From an uncultured Acidimicrobiaceae bacterium (lineage in GTDB: Bacteria; Actinomycetota; Acidimicrobiia; Acidimicrobiales; RAAP-2), in NCBI GenBank assembly GCA_963837805.1, contig CAWIOU010000019.1, positions 26,610 through 90,609 on the forward strand: a DNA stretch of 64,000 nucleotides, in the 5' to 3' direction. The notes beneath the pieces are model-generated. The model saw nothing but the letters and a program-made list of their open reading frames with translations, was not told the DNA's origin and made no database searches. The position numbers and the translations under genes are program-made. Of the stretch, positions 1 through 26,878 are shown in pieces (position 1 is the stretch's first letter; each line of letters starts with the position of its first letter).

Positions 1-467
1 GGCCTTCAAGGACGTGGAACCCGAACGGAGGGACCCTAACCTATGGGGGCCGTCCTGTGCCGATGGCAACCTCGTCTAGTCCGAAAGGGCCTGGTTGCGG
101 GGCACCTCCCGCCTTACCGACATCGGGCCGCTGGCTACGGAAGTGGTTCCGAAACCGTGCGCCCCTCGGCTGGGAGCCGATGGATGAAGAACCGGAGCCT
201 GGTTCCGAATGAGTCACGACGGTGCGTCCAGCCGGATGGCGATCCCGGGCCAATCCGGCCAGTAGGCGGGATTCAGCTAGGCATGAGCGTCGGGCGATGC
301 GCGGTGATGTACAGGGCTGCTGAGCAGGGACTTCCCAAAATCGCAGACAGGTCACGCAACATGGGGTCGGAAAAGATTAGACGCAGATTAGACACGGACG
401 GCTATTTGTCACACCCGGTAAGTACCCTCCGATCACCGTCACCGTGACGGCGAAAGGAAGCTGCGCC

Positions 468-617
468 ATGACCCCCGAACTGTCCAATGATCTCACAGAC
501 ATCAGCGCCCACGTCGAGCATGTTGCCATCAATAACCCGGCTGGGTCCGATCTCAATATTCTGGCCCACGCCATTCACAATCTCTCCAAGGTCATCGAGA
601 GACTCGCAGACGGCTAG
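468..617 (+). CDS. small hypothetical protein (49 aa)
   Basis: ATG at 468 sits 7 nt after GAAAGGAAG (SD-like). The peptide looks helical (MTPELSNDLTDISAHVEHVAINNPAGSDLNILAHAIHNLSKVIERLADG). It is too short for the supplied ORF track. The stop at 615-617 lies 11 nt before repeat copy A. Confidence 0.4.
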   Translation: MTPELSNDLTDISAHVEHVAINNPAGSDLNILAHAIHNLSKVIERLADG

Positions 618-628
618 GTGTCGGAAGT

Positions 629-684
629 GCCGGCCCCGGAGCGCAGGTGGCGGAACCCCGCTCGACGGGGCCGGCCGGCGAAGG
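629..684. repeat. structured ~55-nt repeat, copy A
   Basis: gccggcccc-g-gagcg-caggtggcggaaccc-cgctc-gac-ggggccggc-cggcgaagg. It has an outer 9-bp stem and an inner 5-bp stem. It is homologous to the copies at 2532 and 3673, with compensatory changes in both stems. Confidence 0.75.
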
Positions 685-766
685 CCATAGCTGCTCGACC
701 ACGATTATGAGGGACCATGACCACTTTGCTCTACGATGAGTCAACACTCACAGAGGGGTAGAGGCG

Positions 767-1207
767 ATGCAGAAGCTGACGAGGATAGCCCTTCCGGTGG
801 TCGTTATTGCGGCCGTGGCGTTGGTCGGCTTGTCTCCCGAAGCAAGTTCAGCCGCTACTTCTCAAGCCAGGACGAGGGTCACCTGCAGTTCGATAAGCGG
901 TATCTTTCAGCCCGGTCAAAAGCTCACACTCAGTGGATGCACCGGTGCCACCGGCGGATCTGGAACAACTGCCGCCCCGTTCTTCACCCCAAGCACTATC
1001 CAATGGAAGAGCGGCGCCACGACGACGGTGACATTCAATCCGTGGGTGCAACTCCATGCGACCAGCACATGTCCTAACCAGACAGCGTTAAGGGATGGTC
1101 GTGTGAAGAGCACTACATTGAAGGGCATCACACTCCACTTCTGGGCAGACTTCTGCCTCCGTGGGAATCGCGTAAGTCTGGTGCCCGGAACGTTGATGGA
1201 CTTCTAG
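767..1207 (+). CDS. secreted hypothetical protein (signal peptide, 4 Cys)
   Basis: The ATG is preceded by a GAGGGGTAGAGG purine box. The N-terminus MQKLTRIALPVVVIAAVALVGLSPEASSA looks like a signal peptide. No family recognised. Confidence 0.6.
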   Translation: MQKLTRIALPVVVIAAVALVGLSPEASSAATSQARTRVTCSSISGIFQPGQKLTLSGCTGATGGSGTTAAPFFTPSTIQWKSGATTTVTFNPWVQLHATSTCPNQTALRDGRVKSTTLKGITLHFWADFCLRGNRVSLVPGTLMDF

Positions 1208-2206
1208 TAACCGCAAGTGGATCCGCCGACTACGACGCCCCAGCCGGGCCCGGCGATGTTCACCGACCCGAGGGGCAATGGGTGGCGCTGCTCAATCACG
1301 GGGTTCCAGGTGATAGTTGCGATCGAATCATCATCTCGAGTTAGCGTTGTTGCCGGAGTCGACTCGTCACCGAGGACTGGCACCGACCCGTTTTCAATGG
1401 CCTCAGCCACGGTCATTCTGGTCCCTTCGACGGGAATCTCGAGTTCTATAAGTCCGGCGCTCAGGGCGCAATAAGCCGTCGCAGGGATTCCATCGCTCGC
1501 TGTCATTCCTGTAGAGACAACGCCGATGACCCGGCCAGCGACACTGATGACAGGGCCACCGCTCATCCCAGGCGGGTACAGCGCACCAGTGCGGAACGAA
1601 GGGAAGGTGACCAAAGAACTGTCACGTCGGGACTCGTGCACTTCCTCGATGCGCCCTCGTGAGGTGCAGAGTGCGACGGATCCGGTTGCTTTTGTTTCGA
1701 CCGCCCTGCCGACCTCTATCTTGGGATACCCGACAGAAAGACAGTTCTCACCAAGCACGGGTGGCTCAAGGCCCAGCCGCATGATCCGAGGAGGCGCCAC
1801 GTTCTCATGTAGCTCAGCAACCATGATCGCTACGTCTGACGAGGGCACTCGACCGCCGCGAAAAGCCATGCCTACGACCCAGCAAAATGTTAGGGATAGT
1901 TCACGGCCCGGCTGTAGACGATCGGGGAAGCCAACAGCCAGTCCTCCCTCTTTCATATTCATCAACGTTGTGTCGAGCCGTTACGAGGATCGGATGCCCT
2001 CGATCGACTTGGCCCACGACGAAGGCCGTGCCGAGGCCATTGGCAACGGGCCCGTACCCCGGACGATGTACAAGCGGTACAACCCCAGGCGCCATCAGCG
2101 CCCGCGCGTCTCCCTCTAGGGCAATGAAATCGCTCTCTGTGATTGAGATCGGAATTCCGGGAAGGGTGCCCTCAGGGGTCATAGATCGAATCGTAAACCC
2201 AAACAT
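1204..2206 (-). CDS. trypsin/chymotrypsin-fold serine protease 1 (frame change within 1901-1965)
   Basis: ORFs 1901..2206 and 1204..1965 together supply His (ILVTARHNV), Asp (SDVAIMV) and Ser (PPGMSGGPV) motifs. No signal peptide. There is one frameshift in the sequence as given. Confidence 0.7.
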
Positions 2207-2254
2207 ACGTTCGACGCTGAGCTACAACACGTCCTCGGGTTCGACGGCACGTCG

Positions 2255-2482
2255 CTACAGGGCAGATTGCGCCCGACCCGGAGATTGCTCGGCGATCACG
2301 CTGCAGACACCCCACCGCACAAGAGCCCTGCAAACCTCACACTGAGCGAGGCCGGCATCTATGGGCTCAGGAATCTCGTTGCCCAACGCAACGAAGCCCC
2401 GTGGTCGGTTGGCTCGGATTGAAAGTCCGTCGGGGGCGCGGCAGACGGGGCAACCGAAGTGGTCGAATCCGTCACTGTGCAT
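2255..2482 (-). CDS. small zinc-ribbon-like protein (75 aa)
   Basis: Contains CPVC...(about 35 aa)...CEVC. Same strand as protease 1 and 49 nt upstream of it. Divergent from the Cys/His ORF at 2644. Confidence 0.5.
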   Translation of the reverse strand: MHSDGFDHFGCPVCRAPDGLSIRANRPRGFVALGNEIPEPIDAGLAQCEVCRALVRWGVCSVIAEQSPGRAQSAL

Positions 2483-2531
2483 GACAAAAGGTTATGGCGG
2501 CAATCGGTCAAACGGGTGGATTCCCGAGGTC

Positions 2532-2587
2532 GCCGGGCCCGGAACTCGGTGGCGGAACCCAGTTCGACGGGCCCCGGCCGGCGAAGG
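2532..2587. repeat. structured ~55-nt repeat, copy B
   Basis: gccgggccc-g-gaact-cggtggcggaaccc-agttc-gac-gggccccggc-cggcgaagg. It lies in the divergent intergenic region between 2482 and 2644. Confidence 0.75.
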
Positions 2588-2643
2588 TTGCGGCCAGTGG
2601 GTAGCCCTGAGCGCAGGTCACTCTCTCGCCCTACCGTGGGCCC

Positions 2644-2931
2644 GTGGAGCACTACGCCAACTGCTTCAGCCTTCGCTCGGGGCACTGTTTTCGGATGATT
2701 CAGGCCGAGAATGGCACAGGGCATGCCCAGCGTTGCCCGTACGCTACGATCTGGCGTGGTCGGTGCAAGGACAACGCTGGCAAGTGGCATACGATCGTGG
2801 CCTGCGACGGTCACCGAGCCGACCTGAGCGAGGTCCGGAGGATCAGCGTGTTCTGGGCCGCTCCGCTCAGGGCTGCCCTGGATCGACGGACCATCGTTTC
2901 TTCATCGACAGAAAGACGGCGGCGAGGATGA
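2644..2931 (+). CDS. Cys/His-rich small protein, paralog 1 (family unknown)
   Basis: GTG start. 46 of 66 aligned residues are identical to ORF 5777..6010 by hand count. Shared pattern: HYAxxFxLxSGxCFRxIQAExGTGHAQxCPYxTxWRGRxKDNAGxWHTxxACxGHRA. Confidence 0.55.
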   Translation: MEHYANCFSLRSGHCFRMIQAENGTGHAQRCPYATIWRGRCKDNAGKWHTIVACDGHRADLSEVRRISVFWAAPLRAALDRRTIVSSSTERRRRG

Positions 2932-2968
2932 TGCCGGGGAGCCAGAAGAACCAATACCCGACGATCAT
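2867..2968 (-). CDS. tiny single-TM peptide (33 aa)
   Basis: MIVGYWFFWLPGIILAAVFLSMKKRWSVDPGQP, with high third-position GC. Its ATG overlaps the TGA of the upstream ORF (ATGA). Below the ORF-track size cutoff. Confidence 0.35.
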   Translation of the reverse strand: MIVGYWFFWLPGIILAAVFLSMKKRWSVDPGQP

Positions 2969-3114
2969 GCCGAGCGATCACAACCACCTTGCACCAGTCG
3001 ACAGGCCCGGCGAACGCGTGCGACCTGCACGACCGAATAGATGACAAACGCGAGCCCGCCCGCCAGCACAACTAGGAGGATCAGCCCCTGCTCCCCGAAG
3101 ATGTCCGCTCCCAT
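2965..3114 (-). CDS. tiny single-TM peptide (49 aa), or C-terminal TM of the upstream protein
   Basis: MGADIFGEQGLILLVVLAGGLAFVIYSVVQVARV... The open frame also continues upstream to 3558, so it may be fused to the 3165..3558 protein if an indel is present. Confidence 0.3.
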   Translation of the reverse strand: MGADIFGEQGLILLVVLAGGLAFVIYSVVQVARVRRACRLVQGGCDRSA

Positions 3115-3164
3115 CGAGTCGAACAGTAGCCGGATCAGGGGCCGGTTCGCGGCTGGTAGTGCGG

Positions 3165-3558
3165 TCAGCCGTGCATCGTGTGAAGTAGCTGCGGAAAGTA
3201 GTTCGCCGCGAGACCGGTCAGAAAGCCGGCCGGGACACTCTGCAACTGATTCAGCGCCCACCCGATCACCGTCCTCGACGGTTCGGGCATCTTCGTGACG
3301 GCCCGAATCGTGTCCGACGGCGCCCCGAATCTGCGCCGCCTGGTCGCCTTCGATGCCGGGGGCACCGTCGTCGAGGAACCTGACGACGGCCGTCACGACG
3401 ACCTCGATTTGCTGCCCTTCCTCGACGGTCAGCACGTAGTCGGGAAAGACGATCATCGCCGCCTGGCCCTGCACCACCGTCGCGTCCTGCGCGCTTCCGA
3501 ACCCGATCCTGCTGCCAAAACCGCCCCTTGGACTGAATCCGTTGTCGAATCCGCTCAC
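3165..3558 (-). CDS. hypothetical protein (frame change near 3290-3300)
   Basis: GTG at 3558. The N-terminal part (SGFDNGF...VVTAVVRFLDDGAPGIEGDQAAQIRG) has high GC3 in one frame. From about 3295 the high-GC3 frame switches to ...EPSRTVIGWALNQLQSVPAGFLTGLAANYFPQLLHTMHG, with the stop at 3165. Confidence 0.35.
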
Positions 3559-3672
3559 TTACTTGCCTCTCGTCCCCTCTGGCTTGACGCCTTGGTGCGC
3601 CGGGTCCGCGCCCCTCATGGCAAACGAACCCGGCTAGACAGAGCATCGACGCAGCTAGCGACGACCTTTAGA

Positions 3673-3727
3673 GCCGGGCCCGGAACTCGGTGGCGGAACC
3701 CAGCTCGACGGGCCCGGCTCGGGAAGG
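3673..3727. repeat. structured ~55-nt repeat, copy C
   Basis: gccgggccc-g-gaact-cggtggcggaaccc-agctc-gac-gggcccggc-tcgggaagg. It lies in the divergent intergenic region between 3558 and 3875. Confidence 0.75.
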
Positions 3728-3874
3728 CTACAGCCCGTAATCTCGACGCCATGAACAAGCGCCAGCGATTCATCAACGCAGCCAGTCGAGCAGTCGCATC
3801 GGGATCGGGTCATCTCGGCGCACTAGGACACCTCGCTGAACGAGTACGGCCTCCCGTTGCCGCCGGGGCGGAAG

Positions 3875-4090
3875 ATGTCCGACGAGGAGCACGAAGCTCT
3901 GGCCGACCGAATGGAGGAGCACGTCCGACTGGTGCTGGCCGGGCAACTCCCAGCCGACTCGCCCCCCGACTTCGTTCCGCCAGCGAGCGGCGAGAACGAG
4001 AAGGGTCAGCCATGGTGGTGGGGTCCCGACTTCGACGCCGACCAGGCCAAGAAGATCATGGACGCCGACCGAGACGAGAACGCCCCTTAG
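3875..4090 (+). CDS. small acidic hypothetical protein (71 aa)
   Basis: The ATG is preceded by GGGGCGGAAG. High GC3. Peptide: MSDEEHEALADRMEEHVRLVLAG...GQPWWWGPDFDADQAKKIMDADRDENAP. Confidence 0.55.
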   Translation: MSDEEHEALADRMEEHVRLVLAGQLPADSPPDFVPPASGENEKGQPWWWGPDFDADQAKKIMDADRDENAP

Positions 4091-4185
4091 GCCGTACCGG
4101 AACCTACGTCTGTCTTTCGTCACCGGGATGCGCGTGGCGTTCGGAAGGAACCCCAAGGCAAGCGAACCGGATTGATGGCTGCGAG

Positions 4186-4974
4186 TTAGTCATACTCATT
4201 CAAGAGGCGGAGGACGTGCGTGGACGGGACGAAGTGGGAGAACTGAAGCGGCAATCCGGTACTGTCGTGGAAGTGTCCAGTGTTGATCCCGACGACTCGC
4301 ACTGGACGGTGGGGAGGACCGGACAGACCTTCTCCAAGGTAGAGGCCACGCTGAGTAGCAATGACTGGTGCTCCAGACATACCGGCTCGGCTCAGTGACT
4401 GATAGAGCAGGACTTTGCTTGTTCGTGAGTGTTTCCTGACCTCAACGGGTACCCGTGGATCGCTGGCGATGATGCCAGCCAAGAGGACTGGCCTGTCATT
4501 GATTGTGTCTGGCAAGTCTATGTACCCCGGAATAACGAGGAAATCACCGGCGGAAATGTCTGTAGTGAATCCAGCCTCGTCGCACAGTTCACCTTCGTTG
4601 ATGCCCATTCCGAGTGTGACCGGACCGACATGCCTCTTTATGCGTCGGCCGTCGAGAATGGCTAGGTCGACATCGGGATCGCTGGAAAAGACAGGTGGAT
4701 CGACGAAGGAGAAGACCTGTCGTTGCTCGGACGCTAGATCGTCGGCGTAGTGATAGCCCTCTGCGGTTACCTCGTCGAGCGTCCATCCGATCCGCGTGGA
4801 ATAGCGTGGATCAACAAGGTGACGGCATGTCACCAGCAGGTTGGCCCCGTCTGAACGTTGAACGAACGCTCCCGTACCGGAAGCCGTTCTGGTGCTGCCA
4901 TCAGGAAGCGTGTAGGAGATTCTGAGCCTGAATGAAGCGTAGAGCTGAGCCGTTCGAAAACCTAGGTCCAACAT
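4186..4974 (-). CDS. trypsin/chymotrypsin-fold serine protease 2 (intact)
   Basis: His (LLVTCRHLV), Asp (DVDLAIL) and Ser (AGMSGAPV) motifs sit in one 262-aa ORF. No signal peptide. Confidence 0.75.
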   Translation of the reverse strand: MLDLGFRTAQLYASFRLRISYTLPDGSTRTASGTGAFVQRSDGANLLVTCRHLVDPRYSTRIGWTLDEVTAEGYHYADDLASEQRQVFSFVDPPVFSSDPDVDLAILDGRRIKRHVGPVTLGMGINEGELCDEAGFTTDISAGDFLVIPGYIDLPDTINDRPVLLAGIIASDPRVPVEVRKHSRTSKVLLYQSLSRAGMSGAPVIATQRGLYLGEGLSGPPHRPVRVVGINTGHFHDSTGLPLQFSHFVPSTHVLRLLNEYD

Positions 4975-4981
4975 AGGCCAG

Positions 4982-5296
4982 TCAGTCTGCCAGGCTCAGC
5001 AGGGTCGAAGTCGGTGCTGCTGCTGAATTGACGAGCAGCGTAAACGTCTGAGTATTAGTGCCGACCGAGTTCGTCACCTTGAAGGTCAGCGTGAATGTGC
5101 CCTTGGCGCTGGCCTTGCCGGTAAGCGTGTCGGTCCCACCGCCGGATGAAGTAAAGGTCACTCCGGTGGGAAGCTTGCCCGACGGACGGCAAAGGGCCGC
5201 CCATCGGGCGGCACTGTGGGAATCGGGGGGCGGAGCCGTTAAACTTGGGACTGTCAGTCCCGATCGGGAGTCGCCGCCCTGTTTACTCCGGACTGA
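4982..5296 (-). pseudogene. 3' remnant of an Ig-like-repeat surface protein gene
   Basis: Open frame with no upstream start. The C-terminal part, ...GKLPTGVTFTSSGGGTDTLTGKASAKGTFTLTFKVTNSVGTNTQTFTLLV..., resembles bacterial Ig-like/He_PIG repeats. It is bounded upstream by an in-frame TAG at 5297-5299. Its stop lies 7 nt before the protease 2 ATG. Confidence 0.35.
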
Positions 5297-5302
5297 CTAG
5301 TA

Positions 5303-5337
5303 GCGTCGGTCCCCTTTTCCCCATCGGGGACCGACGC
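5303..5337 (-). terminator. perfect 12-bp stem hairpin (terminator-like)
   Basis: gcgtcggtcccc-ttttccccatc-ggggaccgacgc. On the minus strand it follows the small ORFs at 5378-5754 and precedes the Ig-like remnant. There is no U-tract on the minus strand. Confidence 0.45.
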
Positions 5338-5540
5338 GCCCACCTTTGGCCTTTGGTGCACAACTCCGCTACGCCACTTATCCGCAGGTGCTCGGGTCCG
5401 ACGAAGTTGCCCATGGATCAAGGTACGGCATACATGTGTCGATGGTGATGTGCACGGTTACCGGCGGTGCGCTTTCGGCGGGAACCGTGCGACTGGTGCC
5501 GTCGAGCCGAGTCGGGATGTCTTCGCTCCGGGCCTGTGCC

Positions 5541-5754
5541 CTATCTGTGCTCCGGGTGCCTGGCGTGCCCGTGGCAGTAGCCCTGGAGGCACTGCCCGCA
5601 TCTGGTCTGCGAGATCTTGATACAGGTCGGGTTGGAGCACATGCCGCCACTCGCGCTGCTCCACGTCGATGTCTTCACCCCAGCCACAGTGGTGGTCGCC
5701 GACATGGACGAAGCCTACGCCCAGGGAGTCCATTGTCAACCCGACACTGTCCAT
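5541..5754 (-). CDS. small Cys-rich (zinc-ribbon-like) protein, possible counterpart of 2255..2482
   Basis: The high-GC3 frame 5541..5705 encodes ...MCSNPTCIKISQTRCGQCLQGYCHGHARHPEHR. An N-terminal piece in another frame (MDSLGVGFVHVGDHHC) resembles MHSDGFDHFGCPVC of ORF 2255..2482. Either a frameshift or an alternative start is needed. Confidence 0.3.
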
Positions 5755-5776
5755 TCATCCGAGCGCCTGAGCGCGT

Positions 5777-6010
5777 GTGACAGGCGGCTGGAACTTTGGA
5801 GCCGTGGATCACTACGCCGAGGCGTTCTGCCTGACCTCGGGATTGTGCTTCCGACTCATCCAGGCCGAAGATGGCACAGGGCACGCCCAGCACTGCCCCT
5901 ACCTGACTGAATGGCGGGGACGCTTCAAGGACAATGCAGGCCGGTGGCACACGGTGGAGGCGTGCCAGGGCCACCGGGCGGGCCCCGACTCCGTCCAGCG
6001 GATCGGGTAG
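5777..6010 (+). CDS. Cys/His-rich small protein, paralog 2 (family unknown)
   Basis: Paralog of 2644..2931 (see that entry). The conserved block starts at VDHYAEAFC (GTG at 5804 is an alternative start). Confidence 0.55.
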   Translation: MTGGWNFGAVDHYAEAFCLTSGLCFRLIQAEDGTGHAQHCPYLTEWRGRFKDNAGRWHTVEACQGHRAGPDSVQRIG

Positions 6011-6011
6011 C

Positions 6012-6917
6012 TCACTGCGACGAGCGGGGTTGCCTTGTTACCTCGGCGTTGCACTCCCGACATCTGCTCGTCAGCCCGTCCCGCTTGCCCTTGTGCTTGC
6101 CGAACGCCTGCAGCGGGAGAACCCGAGTGCATCTGGTACATCGCTTCATGTTCGGAGGCAGCTCGACCTTCGACCGAACTCGACCGAGAGGGACGCGGAC
6201 CGCTTTGCCATCAGCGTCTACCTCACCTGGGAATGGACGGCGTGGAGGCGACAGGTCTGCCTCAGCGTCATCGGCTGGACGGTATACAAACTCGTCCTCC
6301 AGCAACTTGAAGAACTCGTCGTCAGTCAGTACGCCCTTCCGCCGATTGCAGGGCTCGCAGGAGGGAACGATGTTTGAGATGTCGTTGGTTCCTCCCCTCG
6401 CCAAGGGCACCCGGTGCTCTCTCTGGAGCCTCTTACCGCCCTTGCCGCAGTAGTAGCAACGTCCGTCGTACATCTCTCGGATGAACCGCCACACGTCATC
6501 GCTCAGACCAGGGGCGGGGACTCGGTTGACAGGTGAACGACCGCGAGGGAGCGTCGGCGGCACCACGTCGGTCAGAACGACGCTGGAGCGGCCCTTCTGG
6601 ATCGACCGAGAGAGCTGCTTGGCGTGCCGCTCGGCATCCTTACGCCGACGATGCTTCGTGGGGCACACGCGGTAGCGCCCGGCGTTGTCCCAGAGAATGT
6701 CGATGAACTCCTCGTAGGGCCTGAAGATGCGGCGACCCCGAGCTGAGAAGTAGGGGGTCCGCTTCTTCTTGCGGACCACCTTGACCTGCCATGACACCCC
6801 GCACTGGTGTCGACTCCAGTTTGGCTTCGCTCCACAGACGGCGCACGCCGCCACCTCAGCGATCCCTCGACCATCCGGGAACGGACAACTTGCCCTTGAA
6901 AGTGTGGCTACCGCCAA
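6012..6917 (-). CDS. HNH endonuclease
   Basis: CYYCGKGGKRLQREHRVPLARGGTNDISNIVPSCEPCNRRKG is an HNH core. There is a C-terminal CTRC...CREC zinc ribbon. Confidence 0.8.
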   Translation of the reverse strand: MAVATLSRASCPFPDGRGIAEVAACAVCGAKPNWSRHQCGVSWQVKVVRKKKRTPYFSARGRRIFRPYEEFIDILWDNAGRYRVCPTKHRRRKDAERHAKQLSRSIQKGRSSVVLTDVVPPTLPRGRSPVNRVPAPGLSDDVWRFIREMYDGRCYYCGKGGKRLQREHRVPLARGGTNDISNIVPSCEPCNRRKGVLTDDEFFKLLEDEFVYRPADDAEADLSPPRRPFPGEVDADGKAVRVPLGRVRSKVELPPNMKRCTRCTRVLPLQAFGKHKGKRDGLTSRCRECNAEVTRQPRSSQ

Positions 6918-6971
6918 AGATCACGTCGCAAGGATACGGCCGCGTGTCGGGACCCGGTGGCCTCCGAGGGG

Positions 6972-7520
6972 TCAGGCCGTGAGGATCTGCGCCTGAGAAG
7001 CCGTCACATCCACGACCGGCCTCACCTTGTGGCGGTAGGCGGTTGCCAGCATCCGCACATCGTTATGACCGGCGAAGTCGGCCACTTCCCTGAAGGTGGG
7101 TCCCGGCATCAACCAGGAGTGAGATAGCCGTGTGGCGTAACTCGTTCGGGCTGAGGCCCACGATGCCGATCTGGACGCCGAGTTCGTCCACCGACCGTCG
7201 CAGGTTGGAGGGGTCGATGGGGGTGCCGATGTCCGTGGTGAACACCAGTCCGTGTTCTTCCCACGCAGGTGATGCCAGGCGCACCCGCTTCTGCTGTGCC
7301 TTGTAAGCCTTCAGCAGCGCGGTCAGCCCGTCCGGCATCTTCAAGGTGCGGTCGCCTCCTGCCTTGGGGTGTTCGATGGCAAAGGTGCCGTCAGGCAACC
7401 TCACTTGCGCCTGCTTCACGGTGAGCGTGCCAGCCTTCAGATCAACGGCAGACCACGGAAGGCCCAGCACTTCCCCAGGGCGAAGCCCCATCCAAACAGC
7501 GGTCAAGCCGCACCCTGGCG
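6972..7520 (-). pseudogene. tyrosine recombinase (phage integrase) catalytic domain lacking its N-terminal domain
   Basis: GLRPGEVLGLPWSAVDL...ELRHTAISLLVDAG, then one frame change, then ...FREVADFAGHNDVRMLATAYRHK. This gives the R, HxxR, H and Y motifs. The N-terminal core-binding domain is absent. The reading frame is fused to the upstream DLH domain. Confidence 0.7.
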
Positions 7521-7524
7521 CGCT

Positions 7525-8851
7525 CGTTGCCCGCAGGTACTTCTCGAACCATGCGCCGGACAACTGGGCCACTTCCTCGAGCGACCCGGGCTCTTCGAAC
7601 AGGTGGGTTGCGCCGGGCACGACGGCGAGCCGGCACGGGCAACAGAGATGGGTGGCCGCCACCCGATTGAGCTCGAGAACGTCGCGATCCGCCCCGCCCA
7701 CGATCAGCAGGGTGGGGCAGCGTACGAGAGGAAGCCGAGCGTCAGCGAGGTCGGGGCAACCCCCGCGCGACACTACGGCTCGGACGGTGTTGCCCGGCGA
7801 CCCGGCCGCCCACAACGCTGCGGCCGCGCCCGTGCTGGCGCCGAAGTAGCCCCGGGGCAGCCAGCCGAGCTGTCCCTGCCTGCGGATCCAATCGCTCGCG
7901 GCCAGCAGTCGACTAGCCAGAAGCTCGACATCAAAGACCTTTCGTCGGTCCGAAGCTTCGGCGGAGGTGAGGAGATCGAACAACAGCGTCCCGAGGCCCC
8001 GCGCGTGAAAGGTTCCGCGCCACCGCCAGGTTCCGAGGGCTGAGACGGCTGCTCCCACTTCCGTGGGCGAAGAGCACGAGACCCCGGGCGCCGGTCGGCA
8101 CCTGCAGGAGTCCCTCCAACTCGCTACCGTCGATGGGGACCGTTACCGCTCGATCGAGGTCAAGTCCGAGAGCCGGATCGGCGGCTCCGCTTGCGTTCTG
8201 GCGAAGCAGTGCGGCGACCTCCTCGTCCGACGTCTGCCCGAAATCGCGGTACCAGAGCCCGACGGCCACGAAGTGAGGGGGGGTCACCAAACTCACGACC
8301 TGGTCGACCTCAGCCTGGAGTTCCTTGACCGTCTCCGAGGGGGCCACGGGCACCGCCAGGACGATGTGACGGGCTCCCCGGGCCCGGGCGATGCGCACGG
8401 CCGTGCGCGCTGTTGCCCCGGTAGCCAGCCCGTCGTCGACGATGACCACCGTGCGTCCCTCGATGGCGATGGGCGCCCGTCCGTCCCGATACCGTCTGAC
8501 CCGGCGGGTCAGCTCTCGACGTTCGAGCGCTTCCACCTGGGTGATGTCCCGTTCTGTCAAACCCACCCGACGGACCAGGTCGGAGTCGAGCAGGCGAACG
8601 CCACCCTCTCCAATGGCCCCGAATCCGAGCTCGGCCTGGAACGGAAGGCCAAGTTTGCGGACCACGATGACGTCGAGCGGCGCCCGTAGGGCGCGGGCCA
8701 CCTCGGCGGCCACCGGCACGCCTCCCCGGGGCAAGGCCAGCACGACCGGCTGTTCGTCCCGGAGGGGGGCTAGCAGTGCGGCTAGGCGCCGACCAGCGTC
8801 TTTCCGGTCGGCGAAGACCTTCTGCCTCTCGTTCGGCCCGACGACGGTCAT
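7525..8851 (-). CDS. phosphoribosyltransferase - dienelactone hydrolase two-domain protein (frame change near 7990-8040)
   Basis: PRTase motif VVIVDDGLATGAT. DLH part: VLFAHGSGSSRLSPRN / GASTGAAAALWAA / VPGATHLFEE. Its ATG at 8851 is 1 nt from the stop of the upstream esterase-like gene. No stop precedes the integrase remnant. Confidence 0.75.
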
Positions 8852-25071: not shown

Positions 25072-26878
25072 GTGAGCACGACGGCGACAACGCCCACAAG
25101 GAACAAATCGCTCCTGGAATGGGTCGAGGAGTGGACGGCCATCCTCACCCCCGCTGGCGTGGAGTGGTGCGACGGGTCCGACGCCCAGTACGAGGCGCAG
25201 TGCCGGCGCCTGGTGGAGTCGGGCACGTTCATCCCGCTCAACCCCGAGTTGCGGCCGGACAGCTTCCTCTGCCGGTCCGACCCGGGCGATGTCGCCCGGG
25301 TGGAGGACCGGACCTTCATCTGTTGCGGGAAGCCTGAGGACGCCGGTCCCACCAACAACTGGATCGAGCCGGTGGTCATCCGCGCCGAGCTGCTCGACCT
25401 GTATCGGGGAGCGATGCGAGGTCGGACCCTCTATGTCATCCCGTTCTCGATGGGGCCGCTCGGCAGCCCTATCGCCCATATCGGCGTGCAGCTGACCGAC
25501 TCGGCCTACGTCGCCGCCTCGATGCGCATCATGACTCGTATGGGCACCGCCGCCCTTGATGTGCTCGGGGAGACCGGCGAGTTCGTGCGGTGCCTGCATT
25601 CGGTCGGACACCCTCTCGCCCCGGGCGAAGCGGATGTTCCTTGGCCCTGCGATCCCGATCGGAAGTACATCGTCCACTTCCCCGAGACTCGGGAGATCTG
25701 GTCGTACGGCTCCGGCTACGGAGGGAACGCGCTCCTGGGCAAAAAGTGCTTCGCCCTGCGCATCGCCTCGACCATGGCCCGGGACGAGGGTTGGCTGGCC
25801 GAACACATGCTCATCCTCAAGCTGACCAATCCACGAGGCGAGAGCCGTTTCATCGCGGCCGCCTTCCCGAGCGCTTGCGGCAAGACCAACCTGGCCATGG
25901 TGGTTCCCACTATCCCCGGATGGAAGGCCGAGACCATCGGTGACGATATCTGCTGGATGAAGTTCGATGCCGAGGGCCACCTCCGGGCCATCAACCCGGA
26001 GTTCGGGATGTTCGGCGTGGCGCCAGGCACGGGGATGAGACCAATCCCATCGCCATACGGGCGCTCGCTGGCGGCACCATCTTCACCAACGTCGCCTTGA
26101 CCGACGACGGTGACGTCTGGTGGGAGGGCCTCACCCCCGAACCACCGGACCACCTCACGGACTGGCGCGGGGACGACTGGACGCCAACGAGCACGAGCCC
26201 GGCCGCTCATCCCAACAGTCGTTTCACAACCCCGCTCTCCCAGGTCCCGACCATGGCGCCCGAATGGGAGGACCCGAACGGCGTGCCCATTTCGGCCATT
26301 CTGTTCGGCGGTCGCCGGGAATCGGTCGTCCCCCTGGTCACCGAATCGTTCGACTGGGCCCACGGGGTGTTCCTCGGGTCGATCATGGCGAGTGAAACGA
26401 CAGCCGCCGCGGCCGGTGCCACCGGGCGCCTGCGCCGCGATCCCTTTGCCATGCTCCCTTTCTGTGGGTACAACATGGCTGACTACTTCGCCCACTGGCT
26501 CCGCATCGGAGAGATGGCACCGAACCCGGAACTGCTCCCAAGCTCTTCTACGTGAACTGGTTCCGGAAGGACGCTGAAGGTCGTTTTATCTGGCCAGGCT
26601 ATGGCGACAACGCCCGGGTTCTGGCTTGGATCTTCGATCGGTGCGAGGGGACGGTCGATGCCACCGACACGCCGATCGGATTGCTACCCGAACGGGACGA
26701 CCTGAATATCGACGGACTGGAGATCGATCCGAGCGCCCTCGCAGAGCTGCTCGTCGGCGAGGCTTCCGCCTGGCGCAACGAGGTACCACTCATCGAAGCG
26801 CACTTTGCCCAATTTGGTGAGCGACTTCCTGACGAATTACGCCATCAGCTCACGACCCTGGAACAACGGCTCGGCTAA
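25072..26878 (+). CDS. pckG: phosphoenolpyruvate carboxykinase (GTP) (at least 2 frame changes, near 26041 and 26550)
   Basis: GTG at 25072 follows AAGAAGGAGG. Motifs: [42 protein letters not shown]. The gene continues in ORFs 26097.. and 26552.. Confidence 0.9.

Follow-up and report, generated by a model that had tools for sequence, protein, structure and literature searches.

A dispersed, genus-wide hairpin family behind -10 boxes in uncultured Acidimicrobiales and its probable place at the 5' ends of transcripts

Repeated extragenic hairpins are common and usually lie at the 3' ends of genes. For example, the REP and REPIN-RAYT elements of enterobacteria and Pseudomonas are short, GC-rich, imperfect palindromes that are dispersed, lineage-specific, and variable in copy number; they sit mostly 3' of genes, with a GTAG-type head and a RAYT gene. 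The Correia elements of Neisseria, which are miniature inverted-repeat transposable elements (MITEs), form a repeat family tied to promoter function, and their transcripts fold into hairpins; they measure 100 to 155 bp and have terminal inverted repeats, a TA duplication, and a promoter inside the element. Here we describe a hairpin family that shares with REPs the short, GC-rich, extragenic palindromic form, the dispersal, the restriction to a lineage, and the variable copy number, and with Correia elements the tie to promoters and the predicted folding of transcripts into hairpins. It came to light in a window of 64,000 nucleotides (the whole stretch of DNA analyzed) from an uncultured Acidimicrobiaceae bacterium (GCA_963837805.1, contig CAWIOU010000019.1, forward-strand positions 26,610 to 90,609), where an earlier note had reported three copies of a ~55-nt structured element. 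Unlike REPs, the family is fixed after a -10 box and is lower in copy number, and none of the Correia hallmarks were seen in it.

The three window elements are members of a dispersed, genus-wide, and lineage-restricted hairpin family and not the local trio that the earlier note described. Relatives were first found by short-word BLAST against the whole genome, where they are diverged and lie on many contigs, and a covariance model (R1) built from 12 relatives identifies at least about 37 copies in this 4.99-Mb genome (referred to as G000). Of 18 genomes sampled from this genus, 17 contain copies, the number per genome ranging from 0 to 24 or more, whereas none of 12 other genera has any; copy numbers from genome searches are lower bounds. 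None of 150 further genomes of the order, covering 122 other genera, contained a copy under stricter filters, with which 22 copies were nevertheless found in G000. A 21-nt degenerate core, followed by the model, was also run against the genomes of all species and every viral contig, and full hairpins appeared only in loci of Acidimicrobiales metagenome-assembled genomes (MAGs), with none in viral contigs. A loose regular-expression scan for further copies was too unspecific and was rejected. Relatives of one window protein come from uncultured Acidimicrobiales/Acidimicrobiaceae MAGs from soil and peat. Among the sources of the relatives are Danish soil, Stordalen, SPRUCE, and Chersky samples. 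A covariance-model search of the kind that the earlier note had suggested returned many copies, and these keep both their pairing and their position at promoters instead of lying unpaired in random contexts.

The family is a conserved RNA-type hairpin in the minus sense of the window, with stems kept by pairing and an invariant loop and bulge. We aligned 67 copies in that sense and tested the structure ....((((((((((((..((((((((..........)).)).)))))))))))))))).... against them: 86% of alignment cells are paired, compared with 32 to 50% in slid controls. Changes on both sides of a pair occur in 15 of 20 pairs (149 cells), a value that 0 of 500 shuffles reached, although these counts overstate independence because the copies are related. 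The lower stem (10 to 11 bp) covaries and is free to vary up to an invariant pair, G16-C47, just below a two-base bulge that reads U17 in 67 of 67 copies and then a pyrimidine, Y18 (C or U). Above the bulge, an upper stem of 8 bp has a nearly fixed base, GAGC/GCUC, and carries the hexaloop UCCGCC, in which every position shows little or no variation; 28 copies close the loop with U-A and 25 with U.G. Two additions to this layout were seen at some loci. A half-copy, GUCGAGCnnGAUUCCGCC, without the lower stem stands just past some full hairpins (loci L236, L281, and L262; G000 C3:118850-118878) and could compete for pairing with the 3' arm. In four paralogous copies (G000 C33:414700-414754, C24:339250-339300, C35:475693-475740, and C30:1250-1303), a second strong stem-loop, GCCCCC-UUCG-GGGGGC, follows the hairpin directly.

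No Rfam family accounts for the element, which the earlier note had not recognized as any named RNA family. Searches of the whole window against Rfam 15 gave 0 matches at the gathering score, and permissive searches gave only chance-level matches at E<=10 around the window copies and at E<=1 around 20 other copies. Integron attC sites were rejected, as the element has no R''/R' core sites (RYYYAAC ... GTTRRRY) and its stem bases are GCCGGGCCC/GGGCCCGGC. ANTAR target RNAs consist of two tandem short hairpins with A1 and G4 in their hexaloops, whereas the present element is a single long hairpin whose hexaloop has G4 but U1. Judged from the sequence, the loop and helix rules of tRNA-like structures, T-loops, group II domain V, and riboswitches do not fit either, and the genes downstream are unrelated. 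A literature search returned nothing relevant to such an element. As far as could be found, no described class combines a lock to predicted start sites with covarying stems and a loop and bulge that do not vary.

The working strand should be the minus strand of the window, opposite to the one read in the earlier note. In the 67-sequence alignment, with the closing pair included, 107 G.U pairs are found on the minus sense and 31 on the other (binomial P = 5e-11, without correction for relatedness), and in the plus orientation the stem mismatches are A.C in 35 cases and G.T in 9. Covariance model scores are 62 to 73 bits on the minus strand and 15 to 27 bits on the opposite strand. The RNA is assigned to the minus strand because of this wobble asymmetry together with the position of the -10 box. 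The earlier note placed the elements 57 to 148 nt upstream of the plus-strand open reading frames (ORFs) beginning at 767, 2644, and 3875; the distances stand, but with the RNA on the minus strand, these ORFs should be divergent neighbors and not genes led by the element.

Coupling to promoters is the principal finding. The established -10 consensus of housekeeping promoters in actinobacteria is TANNNT, and transcription starts 6 to 7 nt past its last T. The last T of a TANNNT hexamer stands 7 to 9 nt ahead of the first stem base in 45 of 79 copies in the minus sense, and a hexamer lies within -5 to -16 nt in 56 of 79, compared with 2 of 79 on the opposite strand; a second, partly overlapping set of loci has a well-placed TANNNT in 20 of 27. 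When upstream regions are aligned on the hexamer, a weak TTG appears at a spacing of 18 to 19 nt, along with a G two bases before the hexamer. The flank profiles contain nothing beyond the TANNNT at 7 to 9 nt ahead of the stem and a T-rich tail behind it. The spacer between hexamer and stem is not conserved, which indicates that the -10 box does not belong to a copied unit. Within the hexamer, C is the commonest third base and the sixth T is fixed, so the TA motif is not a stop codon, and the reading as an intrinsic terminator following a same-strand stop codon was ruled out. That the copies follow a -10 box also upholds the view in the earlier note that they are not simple terminators. Extracytoplasmic function (ECF) and SigF-type promoter readings on the plus strand were rejected on spacing, and a simple sigma-70 and terminator scanner was uninformative for this GC-rich actinobacterium.

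Because the -10 box ends 7 to 9 nt before the stem, the hairpin is predicted to start at the transcription start site: transcripts should begin 0 to 2 nt before the stem, and the hairpin should make up their first ~50 bases. In the window, this puts the predicted minus-strand starts near the stem feet at about 3720-3722 for copy C, 2578-2580 for copy B, and 675-677 for copy A. We consider it likely that the family is a 5'-terminal RNA hairpin placed directly after a promoter. Some of the promoter regions carry further motifs. One subfamily has the palindrome TTAC-N7-GTAA overlapping a -10 box, TAATAT, and another has TTGCSGCAAC...GGTTGC over the -35 region (relatives L124, L141, L142, L144, L153, and L219; G000 C7:33774-33810 and C5:3057-3090); both are probably operators of different repressors ahead of the same hairpin.

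The three window copies were present at the positions given in the earlier note and share one orientation: A at 629-675(-684), B at 2532-2578(-2587), and C at 3671/3673-3720(-3727). All three share the 13-nt loop core GGTGGCGGAACCC without change, and as an exact 13-mer it does not occur again in the window or the 4.99-Mb genome. The compensatory differences between A and the other two also hold (C:G in place of G:C at outer-stem position 6, and two G:C inner-stem pairs in place of A:T and T:A). The shared GAACT/AGTTC layout needs amending, as copy C reads GAACT/AGCTC and copy B has one additional C in its 3' arm. The A.C mismatch that results in copy C on the plus strand becomes a G.U pair on the minus strand, and minus-strand folds of the window copies are equal to or better than plus-strand folds; for copy C, they reach -40.4 kcal/mol (z -4.7) and -34.9 kcal/mol (z -2.7), respectively.

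Copy A (629..675, minus), assigned by its fold, 68 bits to model R1, and the wobble asymmetry, reads as RNA GCCGGCCCCG-UC-GAGCGGGG-U UCCGCC A-CCUGCGCUC-CGGGGCCGGC. By sequence and family pattern, its -10-like hexamer is TATGGC (684..689, minus), 8 nt ahead of the stem and imperfect for want of the final T. Copy B (2532..2578, minus, 62 bits) has a putative -10-like hexamer, CAACCT (2585..2590, minus), placed by register with copy C at equal spacing; it is non-canonical but keeps A2 and T6. Copy C (3671..3720, minus), whose lower stem is lengthened to 12 bp, is the top-scoring copy in the genome (72.6 bits), and its hexamer, TAGCCT (3725..3730, minus), is canonical and ends 4 nt before the extended stem and 7 nt before the core stem. 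None of the three has a U-rich tail. A possible fourth, opposite-sense relic at 5489-5540 scored 10.8 bits (E 0.9) and was not counted, and a distinct, perfect 12-bp hairpin at 5302-5338 scored 17.8 bits against the family model and is not a member.

The downstream side of the hairpin is heterogeneous. At +2 to +5 past the stem, 45 to 51% of bases in the minus sense are T, against a background of 16.5%; about half of the copies have a short U-rich tail (L131 and L145 are examples of tailed copies), about one-third contain 4 or more T within 9 nt, and some orthologous copies have perfect U7 tails. About half have no U tail and a same-strand gene within 18 to 200 nt. In two genomes, a conserved 170-nt leader and then a gene for a secreted protein come after a U7-tailed unit, and several loci hold tandem units spaced 100 to 250 nt apart, each with its own -10 box. 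The genes downstream are mutually unrelated and include a short-chain dehydrogenase (SDR), an HNH/DUF222-type protein, a dienelactone hydrolase, small zinc-ribbon proteins, and secreted proteins. The loop complement GGCGG(A) is not enriched in the downstream leader or the Shine-Dalgarno region, and pairing of the loop in cis with these was rejected.

Gene calls in the low-GC stretch that holds the window copies are rough and were made for this analysis. Copy C most likely leads a 197-amino-acid ORF at 2965..3558 (minus), which starts 113 nt after the hairpin with GTG, has GAGAGG 8 nt upstream, and encodes a hydrophobic C-terminal segment. The first minus-strand ORF past copy B (2255..2482, 75 amino acids, CxxC...CxxC, zinc-ribbon-like) starts 49 nt after the hairpin, and the next gene encodes a trypsin-like peptidase (1204-2206, minus, PF13365). 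A candidate minus-strand ORF of 65 amino acids past copy A (377..574) is of uncertain coding status. The peptidase gene is one of two with PF13365 on the minus strand, the other lying at 4186-4974; it is split into overlapping ORFs at 1901-2206 and 1204-1965 and may be frameshifted. A multicopy family of small Cys/His-rich proteins (77 to 95 amino acids, no Pfam match, DNA paralogues 72 to 81% identical) occupies 2644-2931 and 5777-6010 of the window and G000 C24:338664-338902, C33:413772-414010, C30:1020-1259, and C31:3722-3902, and its genes are often divergent from or adjoining a hairpin copy.

We propose that the element is a factor-read, 5'-terminal leader hairpin or promoter-proximal attenuator, and as a whole, we give this statement an even chance. 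With a housekeeping-type -10 box directly ahead, transcription would start where the stem begins, which would put the hairpin at the extreme 5' end of the transcript. There would then be no upstream RNA before +1 and therefore no competing antiterminator fold, so that regulation would have to act in trans. A single trans-acting factor, probably a protein, could dock at the loop and bulge. Where a U tail is present, in roughly half of the copies, the hairpin could serve as a promoter-proximal terminator or attenuator, with the factor setting read-through; otherwise, the factor may set mRNA stability or translation. A single control would in this way cover many promoters that are unrelated and lie mostly in island DNA. 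A more specific version is possible but rather doubtful: a lineage-specific RNA operator at which one dedicated RNA-binding factor reads the UCCGCC loop and the U-Y bulge at tens of promoters and decides between termination and read-through, or the survival of the mRNA.

Several observations weigh against a factor-read leader or attenuator. The start site and termination rest on prediction, 23 of 79 copies have no well-placed TANNNT, and two of the three window copies (A and B) have imperfect -10 boxes. In one subfamily, the C7/C5/L140 type, pairing is slightly better on the opposite strand. The analysis yielded no candidate binding protein. ANTAR proteins were rejected as partners, since their presence does not follow that of the element and extends to a congener that lacks it. 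Finally, some copies run toward the 3' end of a convergent gene and have no same-strand gene near, an arrangement that better fits a stand-alone small RNA.

Stand-alone small RNAs are an unlikely explanation, although they survive best among the alternatives. Promoter, hairpin, and U tail would together make a unit for an RNA of ~55 to 60 nt, the UCCGCC loop would act as a seed for G-rich targets in trans, and the different promoters of these sibling RNAs would feed different signals into one seed. Two described classes are comparable: the 6C small RNA of Actinobacteria and LhrC-type sibling small RNAs have C-rich apical loops on stable hairpins, with sibling copies under different promoters. 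The 6C RNA differs, however, in having two loops with C runs, in being single copy and conserved across Actinobacteria, and in having an Rfam family that does not match here. The tandem units with their separate -10 boxes, the strong U7 tails of some units, and the copies without a downstream same-strand gene all suit such RNAs, and an invariant loop on covarying stems is what would be expected of a seed. These points are countered by the roughly half of copies that have no U tail and a same-strand gene shortly downstream, and by the lack of enrichment of the loop complement, which was sought in nearby sequence only.

It is quite unlikely that the hairpin is a plain 5'-terminal stabilizer, shielding transcripts, many of them encoded by AT-richer foreign DNA, from 5'-end-dependent RNases (RNase E/J) with no specific factor. 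A stem at the start site is a known requirement for 5' protection, as in ompA-type and Bacillus 5' stabilizers, and here the stem begins 0 to 2 nt from the predicted start site. The copies are enriched in lower-GC DNA, with 57% in stretches below 64% GC compared with 23% of random positions. However, a stabilizer needs no invariant hexaloop, U-Y bulge, or GAGC/GCUC box across about 80 diverged copies, and it leaves the U-rich tail unexplained.

A selfish repeat of the REP/REPIN or MITE type, spreading at the DNA level and linked to promoters through insertion preference or a carried promoter, is very unlikely. The copies are dispersed GC-rich extragenic palindromes whose number varies widely among genomes of one genus; they cluster in islands with insertion sequence (IS)-type genes, are enriched on small contigs, and at one core locus are present or absent across the genus. 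Although the palindrome agrees with REPs, the flank profiles show no GTAG-type head, and no Y1/RAYT transposase (PF01797) was found in G000 (91% complete), whereas control genomes were detected. The core locus has an intergenic region of 19 to 95 nt in five same-genus genomes and of 300 to 550 nt, with the hairpin, in others; the long versions are mutually unrelated, differing by hundreds of bases, with no visible target-site duplication and no clean empty site seen. The unconserved spacer to the -10 box speaks against a carried promoter, and the bias of G.U pairs toward one strand points to selection on RNA. At an orthologous SDR locus, 6 genomes retain the hairpin, with compensatory changes, and it is absent where the upstream context differs. 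Overall, the pattern suggests that regulatory regions turn over under selection and not that the element spreads by cut and paste.

Other features of the surroundings deserve mention. A hypervariable intergenic region between two conserved genes (G000 C44:247750-248200 and orthologous loci L194-L206) measures 19 to 95 nt in five same-genus genomes and holds 300 to 1,100 nt of unrelated sequence in others. A 65-kb, lower-GC contig end (G000 C33:396000-460000) carries IS110-like and IS3/IS481-like transposase ORFs and five hairpin copies. Positions 1-7600 of the window are ~60 to 62% GC, against 67% for the genome, with weak codon-position bias, and hold an HNH endonuclease gene (6012-6917) and a truncated tyrosine-recombinase C terminus inside ORF 7063-8058; this part looks like the edge of an acquired island.

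The last alternative, a plus-strand 5' untranslated region (5'-UTR) motif or DNA operator for the ORFs at 767, 2644, and 3875, is highly improbable: the copies do stand upstream of these ORFs, and paralogues of the 2644 gene have an upstream copy in one other locus, but a -10 box suits the plus sense in only 2 of 79 copies, the stem mismatches on that strand are A.C, and stems that covary without keeping their sequence speak against a DNA palindrome bound by a protein. Of the roles that the earlier note had offered, a 5'-UTR RNA motif and a REP-type hairpin each capture part of the picture.

If a factor reads the hairpin, this uncultured Acidimicrobiales lineage of soil and peat would possess a compact and portable control module, with about a hundred natural sequence variants available. 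If the hairpin is only a stabilizer or a selfish repeat, it would still provide a map of promoters and start sites in these genomes.

Among systems in which an RNA hairpin is read by a factor, the iron-responsive element (IRE), bound by aconitase/IRP, is alike in having a bulge at a fixed distance below a conserved hexaloop and in being reused 5' on unrelated mRNAs as a posttranscriptional regulon. The IRE differs in its loop (CAGUGN, with a C bulge 5 bp below, whereas here UCCGCC stands over a U-Y bulge 9 bp below), and the present family has no link to iron genes. HIV-1 TAR, lambda nut boxB, and HK022 put are likewise hairpins at or near the nascent 5' end, with a small 5'-strand pyrimidine bulge and a conserved apical loop, read in trans in a decision on termination or pausing near the promoter. 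Their sequences are unrelated to ours, and they are viral, with one or two sites each, whereas the present family occupies tens of chromosomal and island promoters. The resemblance concerns working principle only, with no membership claimed. If the RNA operator described above is real, it would represent, in bacteria and at the scale of a regulon, a counterpart of TAR/Tat or nut/N control, possibly one that gates the expression of foreign genes.

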